Positions 53,401-56,400 of a stretch of 64,000 nt of DNA are shown one piece after another; within the stretch, counting starts at the first letter, position 1, and every line of letters begins with the position of its first letter. The position numbers are program-made. The stretch lies in assembly GCF_000026545.1 (NCBI RefSeq), contig NC_011603.1. One strand, given 5' to 3'. Origin of the DNA: Escherichia coli O127:H6 str. E2348/69. GTDB taxonomy: Bacteria; Pseudomonadota; Gammaproteobacteria; Enterobacterales; Enterobacteriaceae.

Positions 53401-56400
53401 TGATTCGCCAGCAGTATAAAAATGTGGGTATTATCGCTACCGAGTTTACTATTAAAACGGGGTGTCACAAAGAGCTAATAAAAAAATTGAACCCAACAAT
53501 AAATATATTTGGAGAACCAAGCAAAAATCTTGCAATGTTAATTGAGGAAGGTAATCTTAATGCTCCTGCAATATTGAATGATATCAAAAAACATGTTAAC
53601 CATTTAATTTCCCTCCATCCAGTAAATGAAATTATTCTCGGCTGTACTCACTATCCAATTGTTCAGAATTTATTTGAAGCAGTTGCACCGGATATAAAAT
53701 TTATTAATCCTGCACATGATCAGGCTATCTCTATTAAAAATCACTTGGGACAGCTAAATTTATTAAACTCCTCAAATATAGGAACTTTGCAAATAAATAC
53801 TAGTGGAAGTATGGAGATCTACAAAACGGTACTAGGGGAATTGAGCATTACGAAACCTCATACATTCAGTATCAGGCAGTTTTAAATTTATCCGGTGCAC
53901 CGTAAAACCCCGTCCTTCTGAACTGCACCCCAAAAGTTGGACACCAACTGAGTAAGGTGCATTTTATGGGCAAACCCAGTTACATACTGGGTAGTGCATC
54001 CAATTAGTAGAACATGTGTTTTTCGATAAACGCTCCGATCACTTTTTCGTGGATCTCAACTGAGCGTGAGAAGCAGATTGTTTTACGACCCAACCGCTTA
54101 ATGCGGGTGCGTAGCGTCAGATTATTACGCTCAATGCATTGGGTGAATATTTTGCCGGTCAGATGCTTATTCTTCGGCACCTCCCGGCCATAGCTGCCCC
54201 AGTCATCGCTGGTCAGCATGCCGATGTTGAAGGGTGTAAGCAGTGCCAGTAGCTCCCGGCACGTTTGATCGGTTCGGGGACCAAAAGTGTAGGCCAGTAC
54301 ACCGCCTGTTTTGGTGTTGTACGCGTACCAGATCCAGTGTTGCCGGGCTTTACTGCCAACGTAGCTCCATTGCTCATCAAGCTCGCAGATAAACGCCACA
54401 TCAGCATGGGTAACAGGCGAAGAAGTTATTCGCTTTGGCGCGAGTTTTTTAAAGTCCGGATGACGGTGTTACTACCAATTTTCAGTGTCCTGGCGGTATC
54501 GCGAACCCCGGCACCATTAAAGGCCATTTCAGTGATCAGCTCTTTCATACCCGGCTTACGTGCTTGATAAGTATAAGTGAGCTGAAACACACGGTGGCAG
54601 TCACGGCAGCGAAGTCTGTCACGGCCTTTAGGGTTCTGACCATGGCGGTAAACCTGAGCTGACTGACAACGGGGACAATGAATATTAACTCTGGCCATGA
54701 GATAACCTCAAAAACCCGTATTATACATCAGATTCAACTAATTAGAGGCATCACCTATCCAGCATTATATAACATACTAACAATAACTAAATTATAATAA
54801 TCACAACTTATAATCAAATAATAAACGCATAAAATCAACAATGATTTTTTCTGGTTATATTTATCTAAAAAACGGAATATTATGTAACCTATTATTTTCT
54901 AAGCGTAAATTTATTATGTGGTCAGACTAACAAACTTGCGTACCACCCGAAGAATATGCGAAAATTTAAGTATTCTTTCTTTTTTTATTTTTTCATTTTC
55001 TCTTTTCTTCTCTTTCCGGTTCTCTTCTTTTCTGGTTTTGGTTTTTTCCTTTTTATTTTTATTCTTTCTTCAGGGTTGTGCTAAAACACCAAAACATTTT
55101 TCACCACAAAAGCATCCAATCATCTTGCCAGACCAATCACCTTAACCGGATACACTGCCGGATATAATCCCACTAACACCCAGCCACCCCGCACCATTCC
55201 TGATAACTACCGTATTCAGGAAGTTGAGCCCTACTCAATTGATGAAATGTTCATTGATTTGCGGGGGATAAATCATTGCATCTCTCCGGAGGCTTTTGGT
55301 CATCAGCTCAGGGAACAGGTAAAGAGCTGGACAGGACTCACCATGGGGGTGGGCATTGCGCCTACAAAAACGCTGGCTAAAAGTGCACAGTGGGCAACAA
55401 AGCAATGGCCACAGTTTTCCGGTGTGGTCGCGCTGACGGCAGAAAACCGTAATTGGATCTTGAAGCTACTGGGGCTGCAGCCAGTTGGTGAGGTCTGGGG
55501 AGTAGGACGCAGACTGACGGAAAAGCTGAATGCGCTGGGTATTAACACAGCACTGCAACTGGCGCAGGCTAACACGGCATTCATCCGGAAAAACTTCAGC
55601 GTCATTCTTGAGCGTACGGTACGCGAACTCAACGGCGAGTCCAGCATATCCCTGGAAGAAGCACCACCGGCAAAACAGCAGATTGTCTGTAGTCGCAGTT
55701 TTGGTGAACGAATCACAGACAAAGATGCCATGCACCAGGCTGTTGTTCAGTATGCAGAGCGGGCCGCAGAGAAACTACGTGGGGAGCGTCAGTATTGTCG
55801 GCAGGTGACGACATTTGTACGGACATCCCCCTTTGCAGTAAAAGAACCCTGTTACAGCAATGCCGCTGTGGAAAAGCTTTCATTGCCACACAGGACAGCC
55901 GGGGCATTATTGCCGCCGCATGCAGAGCCTTAAACCATGTCTGGCGTGAAGGGTACCGCTATATGAAGGCAGGAGTCATGCTGGCTGATTTCGCACCATC
56001 GGGTATAGCGCAGCCGGGATTATTTGATGAAATCCAGCCCCGTAAAAACAGTGAAAAGTTAATGAAAACACTCGATGAACTGAACCAGTCGGGAAAAGGG
56101 AAAGTGTGGTTTGCGGGGCGAGGAACCGCCCCTGAATGGCAAATGAAACGGGAAATGCTATCGCCTTCGTATACAACACAATGGACTGAGATCCCCATTG
56201 CTTCATTCTGATATATCAGAATAATTTTTTCATTTTAAGACGCACATCATTCATTGCCTCCTGCACCGAATCAGTAGCAGAAGGAGGCATTTTTTCAACA
56301 GATTGCGAAGCACCGAGTTCAGTCAACACAGCTCTGATATCGGCCTGAGAAGGCTTCCATCCAGTCGTCTGACTGAGTAAGGTTACAACCTGATCTGCTG

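Follow-up and report, generated by a model that had tools for sequence, protein, structure and literature searches.

The cryptic prophage CPZ-55 of Escherichia coli K-12 is inserted right after the eutA stop codon, with an 8-bp duplication, TCAGGAAG (PMC6379469). H-DNA, a triplex, forms from homopurine/homopyrimidine mirror repeats when the DNA is negatively supercoiled, and it has been observed in plasmids of E. coli; acid pH helps its C+ triads, and H-DNA stalls polymerases (PMC11667243). With GAA repeats, triplex and R-loop blocks are strongest when purine-rich RNA is made (PMC11667243). Mirror repeats and purine runs are normally represented in most prokaryotes (PMC4060949), and the intrastrand triplex motifs (TM) of Enterobacteria (Holder et al. 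2015, PMC4666352) are G/C-rich and multi-copy and occur in many genomes. Here we describe a polypyrimidine tract next to a 5'-truncated umuC gene in a stretch of 64,000 nucleotides from E. coli O127:H6 str. E2348/69 (contig NC_011603.1; the whole stretch is called the window), which was 100% identical to the enteropathogenic E. coli (EPEC) adherence factor (EAF) plasmid pMAR7 (NC_010862.1). The tract lies in the end of a CPZ-55-type island and contains a mirror repeat. We regard as moderately probable the combined account in which the tract came with the island end, the integrase IntZ inserted the island into umuC, and the symmetric mirror repeat has been selected for its triplex-forming ability. 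Our confidence is high for the provenance and the junction, and low to moderate for a function of the mirror repeat. The features on which the argument rests are as follows:

54973-55071, plus strand (polypurine on the minus strand): polypyrimidine tract, 99 bp, ~90% pyrimidine
55001-55033, no strand: H-DNA-type mirror repeat with perfect 14-nt pyrimidine arms (55001-55014 and 55020-55033) and the spacer TCCGG (55015-55019)
54756-55127, no strand: non-coding cassette, an AT-rich part (~21-31% GC) followed by the T/C tract, from alignments of 9-10 island variants
55128-55215, plus strand: island arm next to the core (attP/attR arm), common to all IntZ islands including K-12 CPZ-55
55216-55223, no strand: 8-bp att core TCAGGAAG, the exact island/umuC junction, which holds the eutA stop codon in chromosomes
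50609-55223, plus strand: right 4.6 kb of an integrative eut-site island of CPZ-55 (IntZ) type, by local blastn
55224-56211, plus strand: 5'-truncated umuC (Y-family polymerase) remnant in two frames, open reading frames (ORFs) 55247-55933 and 55795-56211

Island origin of the tract and its junction with umuC

The tract was delimited as the maximal-scoring pyrimidine segment of the window, with a score of 59 (+1/-3 segment scoring) compared with 20 for the next best segment. Its 99 bp comprised 89 pyrimidines, among them 20 C, and 10 purines (6 G, 4 A). The best 100-bp pyrimidine fraction was 0.89, against a window mean of 0.516 (standard deviation 0.069). An earlier, sequence-only reading of this DNA had reported a strand almost entirely of T and C over about 118 bp. 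A T/C tract was indeed present, but the 118 bp at 54958-55075 (T74 C20 G12 A12) were only 79.7% pyrimidine, and the figure of 90% applied to the 99-bp core. The location given by that reading, between a complete insertion sequence (IS) of type IS1 and the umuC remnant, was correct, with ~217 bp to the end of the IS1 and ~150 bp to the start of umuC homology. Its concern that the tract might be an assembly artefact was settled, since the tract recurred in independent plasmid, chromosome and metagenome records. These included the pMAR7 record, an independent E2348/69 assembly, other EAF-type plasmids, >130 complete E. coli chromosomes and 14 metagenome contigs. Outside E. coli and Shigella, no homologues of the tract were found in phages, viral contigs or species-representative genomes.

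Two genome matches and one metagenome match to the tract were unrelated sequences. A plasmid match, CP088517.1 (pE16EC0790-1), was discarded as a low-complexity record with kilobases of T/C: at positions 1-4860, ~4.8 kb of the 6.5-kb record is unbroken T/C with 1600-aa ORFs, and this public entry almost certainly reflects an error of sequencing or assembly.

Window positions 50609-55223 aligned with the island in the chromosome of E. coli WS3294A (record L007, 30522-35137) at 98.07% identity over 4622 bp. A near-full-length copy of the tract region (476-bp query, ~95% identity) stood beside the eutA stop codon in 119 of 5426 complete E. coli genomes. In these chromosomes the block closes, on the right, a ~10-kb island whose first gene is intZ, adjoining eutB. 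The gadC-like/murI-like/IS1/AT-rich/tract block and ~150 bp more are not plasmid backbone. The IntZ of the island is a tyrosine integrase (domains Arm-DNA-bind_3, Phage_int_M and Phage_integrase), and a 63-aa island protein matched HTH_17 and phrog_66, 'excisionase and transcriptional regulator'. A 257-aa island protein had a weak replication-initiator-like (winged helix-turn-helix) match, and its gene was directly followed by four tandem 33-bp iterons (ACGTGTGACATTTGGGATACAGGTCAG..., L007 27295-27417). The iterons and the rep-like gene suggest replication of the island after excision, in the manner of a satellite or a phage-inducible chromosomal island (PICI).

The plasmid carried the right end only, and the left half with the intZ, xis-like and rep-like genes was absent. 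Searches of the window and of pMAR7 positions 1-35700 revealed neither intZ, the left arm and attL nor umuD and the 5' part of umuC. The att core and the right arm were present in the plasmid copy, while the integrase, attL and the location between eutA and eutB were not. The plasmid copy is a truncated remnant rather than an intact member of the CPZ-55-type islands, because the IntZ gene and attL are absent from the plasmid and present in its chromosomal relatives.

The island ended exactly at the att core, ~150 bp to the right of the tract. The core was also derived independently from attL (CCC TCAGGAAG AAGTGATG) and attR (CCGTAT TCAGGAAG GAAATGCG) of WS3294A. The blastn end points overlapped by 2 bp at 55222/55223, with the island extending to 55223 and an intact plasmid umuC aligning from 55222. 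The umuC remnant was 98-99% identical to intact plasmid umuC genes from an internal position onward. The two ORFs over which it is split overlap, a sign of one more frameshift, near 55800-55930, in comparison with the intact plasmid gene. Across the junction (marked by a slash) the three sequences align as follows:

Window: ...CCGTATTCAGGAAG/TTGAGCCC...
Intact umuC: ...GGAGTCGCTTTCTCCCGCAG/TTGAGCCC...
True attB: ...TAAGTCGTTCCCTCAGGAAG/GAAATGCG...

The lost side of the umuC site (intact umuC reads AGTCGCTTTCTCCCGCAG/TTGAG) and the corresponding side of the real attB (AGTCGTTCCCTCAGGAAG/GAAAT) were identical in register at 12 of 18 positions (binomial p ~2e-4 by our own estimate). It is strongly suggested that a circular island was integrated by IntZ into a secondary attB inside a plasmid umuC. 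The island's left half would have been lost in later IS-mediated events, and with it umuD and the 5' end of umuC. Such an integration would have produced an attL consisting of the umuC 5' part ...GGAGTCGCTTTCTCC, the core and AAGTGATGAG... intZ, and the absence of this junction from pMAR7 counts against the model.

The sequence-only reading had placed the junction elsewhere, proposing that the tract itself marked the deletion or recombination that removed umuD and the umuC 5' end. A recombination event did truncate umuC nearby, but its junction was the att core rather than the tract. The tract is internal to a block collinear with chromosomal eut-site islands, and it belongs to a known element, a CPZ-55-type island end, which that reading had itself named as grounds for refutation. 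A tract acting as a hotspot of non-B DNA would have in its favour its closeness to the truncation and the IS1 ends that other records show within or next to the cassette, which mark the region as rearrangement-prone: one lies in the left arm of the mirror repeat in a metagenome contig (OGDT01000858.1) and one at window position 55103 in p89_MLI108-3. The real junction at 55222/55223 is 150 bp away, however, and on either side the tract is flanked by sequence collinear with chromosomal islands in whose vicinity umuC is absent. This collinearity already refutes the explanation, and we consider it very improbable. The truncation of umuC looks like site-specific integration of a tract-carrying island rather than recombination at the tract.

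The tract was found to belong to an optional non-coding module. Island variants with different cargo (tape-measure-like genes, helix-turn-helix (HTH) proteins, or gadC and murI) shared a right-end module of ~400-470 bp, in the order terminator-like hairpin of the last gene, AT-rich stretch, tract, arm and core. The cassette thus lies between the cargo and the integrase arm, and in the island type of the window its left edge is cut by IS1. In nine chromosomal variants the tract lay 144-146 bp from the eutA stop and was 102-109 bp long, compared with 99 bp in the plasmid. Only some IntZ islands had the cassette; it was lacking in K-12, C41 and 20AR0300, and in such tract-less islands the terminator was followed within ~10 nt by the ~90-bp arm. 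The integrases of tract-bearing and tract-less islands were 92-96% identical and intermixed, with no link between tract and integrase type; the closest pair (96%) joined tract-less C41 and tract-bearing O157 PV15-279. The cassette is therefore an optional module, outside the minimal recombination site. No earlier description of it was found in the literature searched, which did not extend to the pMAR7 sequence paper.

The Klebsiella pneumoniae plasmid pHK02-026 (NZ_KY751926.1, 86570-93050) carries a whole K-12-type CPZ-55, from intZ to yffS, between ISEc23 and mphA. Its CPZ-55 proteins have accessions identical to those of K-12, and its right boundary lies just after yffS instead of at the core. 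This arrangement resembles a capture mediated by IS elements, which may have taken place while the plasmid passed through a K-12 host; a boundary off the core has the look of non-specific capture, in contrast to the pMAR7 junction at the core. Within the window, a 70-bp piece of the island (L007 30461-30530) was found in inverted orientation at 46571-46640. This piece and the main block have 9 bp of island sequence (30522-30530) in common, a length that matches the target duplication of IS1. Additionally, an IS1-like remnant of 80% identity (50433-50611) abutted the left island break at 50609. These two features suggest insertion of an IS1 and then inversion or deletion.

Mirror symmetry of the tract and its natural alleles

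The mirror repeat at 55001-55033 reads TCTTTTCTTCTCTT-TCCGG-TTCTCTTCTTTTCT, and its arms are 100% pyrimidine on the plus strand. H-DNA motifs were scored as arms of at least 10 nt with a spacer of at most 8 nt and at least 90% purine or pyrimidine. With these settings the repeat was the only H-DNA-type motif in the window, compared with 0.03 per window shuffled at local composition. The strand purity, the mirror arms (at least ~10 nt) and the short spacer that characterize H-DNA sequences were all present, and the suggestion that the tract is mirror-like and could form H-DNA was to this extent borne out at the sequence level. When the 99-nt tract alone was shuffled, the probability of an arm of at least 14 nt was 0.02-0.03. 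The lengths of the T-runs were mirror-symmetric over ~45 nt on each side (permutation p 1e-4 to 6e-3): they followed the order 1,2,4,1,4,6 on both sides in pMAR7, and seven consecutive runs matched in LR-28.

Natural variants keep the mirror symmetric through paired changes. Eleven distinct alleles were recovered from 40-odd loci, and nine of them kept perfect mirror arms of 14-15 nt. The long T-run of the arm was T4/T4 in the pMAR7/WS3294A type (many independent records), T5/T5 in the TBE6/O157/EFF60 type (12 loci across four alleles) and T3/T3 in the LR-28 type (one complete genome and one metagenome contig). In the LR-28 type the innermost runs were also both one T longer (+1/+1). In allele L041, the first mismatched mirror position (15) had changed from C/G to T/T. 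Substitution counts from MAFFT alignments were inflated in the tract by misplaced gaps in T-runs and were replaced by edit distances. On this measure, an 83-nt core differed by 4 edits between types whose flanks differed by 13-25%, and all 8 edits inside the mirror unit formed 4 mirrored pairs. Alleles that broke the mirror occurred only in Shigella-type contigs with a decayed eut operon (L042, L043 and L048), and consisted of a T-to-G change in one arm (L048) with a further 5-nt deletion in S. flexneri (L042 and L043). One contig end, L034, was also asymmetric, but its coverage was low (2.5) and it was regarded as unreliable. The eutA of the three Shigella-type contigs has been reduced to 457 aa and lies fused beside a PduV/EutP-like gene, and L048 is without 14 nt at the 3' end of the tract.

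Mirror repeats cannot be homogenised by Watson-Crick templating, and hence no simple mutational mechanism accounts for the paired changes. By a rough, post hoc estimate, their chance was 1e-4 to 1e-5. One explanation, which we hold to be possible, is a neutral, low-complexity, T-rich and slippage-prone spacer without function, whose symmetry is coincidence or hitch-hiking. T-run indels are typical of slippage, and the 5' part of the tract is variable. With Tandem Repeats Finder, only weak, degenerate periodicities were detected in the tract (66-87% matches, scores 33-50), which agrees with such a spacer; no high-identity head-to-tail units of a microsatellite or tandem repeat were detected by this program. 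It would also be in line with the absence of the cassette from closely related islands, with the lack of anything similar outside E. coli or Shigella and with a composition-weighted mirror test that was not significant. It is harder to reconcile with a core only 4 edits apart between such divergent flanks, with edits that all fall into symmetric pairs, with the run-length symmetry and with the restriction of uncompensated changes to Shigella-type contigs.

To our knowledge, no established DNA structure other than H-DNA depends on homopurine/homopyrimidine mirror symmetry, and for this reason we propose that the mirror unit is an element of the island border that responds to supercoiling by forming a triplex or unpairing. 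It may tentatively be supposed that the 33-35-bp mirror repeat has been selected for mirror symmetry itself, as functional H-DNA or another mirror-dependent structure; weakly inferred from the sequence, selection would have been for H-DNA or a related unpaired state under negative supercoiling. In the chromosomal island, read-through from the eut operon would enter from the tract end and yield a purine-rich RNA, the orientation for which the strongest blocks are described with GAA repeats (PMC11667243). A structure between arm and cargo could then absorb supercoils and impede polymerases, and the role would be that of a border or insulator element; alternatively, it might modulate recombination or attP topology. 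The tract in pMAR7 is an inherited relic, a passenger, because this plasmid has lost intZ.

Several points weigh against the triplex proposal. The symmetry tests were devised after the pattern had been seen, and within the composition of the tract itself the arm-length probability was no lower than the 0.02-0.03 given above. A composition-weighted Smith-Waterman mirror alignment of the whole tract scored no better than shuffles, 42-96 of 300 of which reached its score. G and A interruptions beyond the 14-15-nt arms were not mirrored, which makes a long triplex unlikely. The five protonated cytosines of each arm would favour acid pH. Only 3-4 of the paired events are independent, and one of these, the inner run, may not reflect compensation. 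Integration does not require the cassette, which is missing altogether from islands whose integrases are 92-96% identical. H-DNA formation is itself read from the base sequence.

The symmetry may have another reader. A protein that reads the minor groove cannot tell A-T from T-A, and to such a reader a mirror repeat looks palindromic. The T-runs might accordingly form a shape or minor-groove pseudo-palindrome or array in a protein-binding, architectural region of attP, bound by the excisionase-like protein, IHF, Fis or H-NS in folding the intasome or silencing the island. The position of the tract, 145-245 bp from the core and in the arm upstream of intZ in the excised circle, would suit such a region, and the island encodes both an integrase with an arm-binding domain and the HTH_17 excisionase-like protein. 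The arm itself, however, holds two direct CCGGATAYA repeats (55146-55154 and 55158-55166), and the motif recurs in the left arm beside intZ; these repeats, and not the tract, are plausible candidates for the Int arm sites. The sequence of the arm is widely shared: 55134-55196 was 84% identical to K-12, and the ~87-bp arm was 81-97% identical in many other islands. Copies of CCGGATAC at the left edge of the cassette were considered as distal arm sites and dropped, being present in only some variants. With the intermixing of tract-bearing and tract-less integrases, including the C41 and O157 pair, also speaking against it, we judge a binding region of attP to be unlikely.

Read as RNA, the plus strand of the tract has the composition of a Rho utilization (rut) site, that is, ~70-80 nt or more of poorly structured RNA with more C than G: its 99 nt contain 20 C and 6 G, with little predicted structure. 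A rut site loading Rho on this U/C-rich, G-poor RNA could end island transcripts before they run antisense into eutA. The tract follows the last cargo gene, with eutA converging on it from the other side, and tract-less islands have only an intrinsic terminator at the corresponding place. In tract-bearing islands, however, a hairpin resembling an intrinsic terminator already precedes the cassette, the tract is rich in T and not in C, and mirror symmetry with symmetric co-variation is neither required nor predicted by Rho loading. A rut site thus seems decidedly unlikely. No terminators were detected in a promoter and terminator scan around the tract, and the two weak plus-strand promoter-like sites to its left, in the AT-rich part of the cassette and at the IS1 end, were within chance expectation. 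Neither a neutral relic nor a shape-palindrome or rut site predicts symmetric changes as directly as triplex formation does.

A structured RNA was not indicated either. The tract had no Rfam match at E <= 1. RNAalifold gave unfavourable covariation terms for the two strands (+1.78 and +0.55) with 3 of 52 and 1 of 66 compensatory pairs, and hence neither a family match nor a conserved fold with compensatory pairs was found. The RNA was weakly structured, with a minimum free energy of -13.8 kcal/mol and a z-score of -1.6 over 151 nt. An inverted repeat, GAAGAATA-(14 nt)-TATTCTTTC at ~54952-54981, overlaps the 5' edge of the tract. It showed one compensatory pair between allele types (T-A versus C-G) but also a broken pair, and gives a hairpin weak support.

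ORFs of 42, 75 and 108 aa extend across this DNA in different frames, and some are annotated by pipelines, which could be taken to indicate a small hydrophobic (Phe/Leu/Ser-rich) membrane peptide or a type I toxin-like gene. The candidate is:

54956-55084: ORF of 42 aa in the window, with a 64-aa version from the corresponding ATG in WS3294A

Since a pyrimidine run cannot contain stop codons, ORFs through the tract arise automatically. Indels, one of 5 bp and several of 1 bp, disrupted the frames between alleles, the C-terminal peptides differed by frameshift, and the ATG at 54956 was ACG in B-type alleles; neither a reading frame nor a start codon was conserved among the homologues, as would be expected of a small membrane protein or type I toxin. 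Among 5.8 billion proteins searched, only 11 ORF calls ran through the tract, none with a Pfam domain or other family match. A peptide gene is accordingly the least probable of the explanations, and we give it almost no weight. A lipoprotein lipobox (LQGC) was considered and dropped, the Cys being Tyr or Gly in other alleles.

Cargo genes and other features of the window

The island block contains three further elements:

51582-53042, plus strand: gadC-like amino-acid antiporter gene, island cargo (ORF; annotated gadC in pMAR7 and in chromosomal islands)
53064-53885, plus strand: murI-like glutamate racemase gene, island cargo (ORF; annotated murI)
53990-54755, minus strand: complete IS1-family element, ISEc30-like (terminal repeats, InsA and InsB ORFs, annotation)

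The IS1 sits at the same position in chromosomal islands of this type. IS1 ends were seen at three points of the cassette: at its left edge (window 54755), within the left mirror arm (OGDT01000858.1, positions ~1-50) and at window position 55103 (p89_MLI108-3, ~5990-6001). In p89_MLI108-3, a related EAF-type plasmid, the tract has been lost through the IS1 event. An IS629-like end interrupts the arm at ~55152 in p2018-02-2CC_1, and the AT-rich cassette looks like a target hotspot for insertion sequences.

The motif CCGGATAYA occurred 10 times in the window (13624, 22401, 26731, 30770, 32053, 35962, 42629, 53688, 55146 and 55158), against 0.67 expected, and 10 copies were reached in 0 of 100 shuffles; the 9-mer had been picked for its repeats in the att arms of the island. 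Four copies in the plasmid backbone read CCGGATACAGC, and with at most one mismatch this 11-mer had 7 matches, compared with 0.83 expected. The copies of either motif in the plasmid had unrelated, unique contexts, and the excess may be an effect of codon usage.

A second strand-asymmetric tract was found at 43969-44071 on the plus strand, ~100 bp with 82% purine (GGAAAGAAGAGGAAGAGGAAAAGAAGAAGAA...), within a GC-rich segment that is common to >5000 F-type plasmids and annotated only as 'hypothetical protein'. No perfect mirror repeat of the H-DNA type was detected in it.

Comparison with known islands and triplex motifs

The island origin explains an unannotated stretch of pMAR7 and the destruction of its umuDC operon, and provides an example of island-to-plasmid traffic through a secondary att site, involving an eut-site island with acid-resistance-like cargo (gadC-like and murI-like). 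If the symmetry of the mirror repeat was selected, a role for a DNA triplex would, as rarely in bacteria, be backed by natural co-variation and not by in vitro probing; if it is coincidental, the tract is an ordinary low-complexity relic. No enrichment or function of H-DNA motifs is known in enterobacteria, and a mirror repeat with arms that vary together would be a natural, genetically tractable test case.

The closest described island is CPZ-55 of K-12 (intZ-yffL...yffS, between eutA and eutB). It shares with the tract-bearing islands the 8-bp core TCAGGAAG right after the eutA stop, the ~90-bp core-proximal right arm with CCGGATAYA repeats, and the layout (intZ towards eutB, cargo towards eutA), and its integrase is 92-93% identical to their IntZ. 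Unlike them, CPZ-55 of K-12 is without the AT-rich cassette and the T/C tract, and its last terminator abuts the arm. The cargo also differs, being gadC-like, murI-like and a decarboxylase pseudogene in the island described here. The copy in the window is further set apart by its location on a plasmid, within umuC, and by its truncation and lack of intZ.

The junction resembles secondary-site (pseudo-attB) integration by phage-type tyrosine integrases, as at the secondary att sites of lambda, in that it falls exactly at the core and in that the lost umuC side resembles the true attB (12/18). It differs in that the reciprocal attL is gone, and the event was reconstructed from one junction only.

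In common with H-DNA motifs of the Mirkin and Frank-Kamenetskii type and with the (GA)n/(TC)n tracts probed in E. coli plasmids, the mirror repeat has an all-pyrimidine strand over both arms, perfect 14-15-nt mirror arms and a 5-nt spacer, in line with published sequence requirements (PMC11667243). It differs from them in being short and T-rich, with 4-5 C per arm, and in being flanked by imperfect, interrupted T-runs. It is also natural, conserved in a bacterial mobile element and not a simple repeat, and is known from its sequence. The enterobacterial TM (PMC4666352) are likewise proposed triplex-prone bacterial sequences linked to rearranged loci, and here IS1 ends cluster in or near the cassette. 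In contrast to the TM, the element in the window is an A/T-rich duplex mirror repeat, single-copy and limited to one island family.

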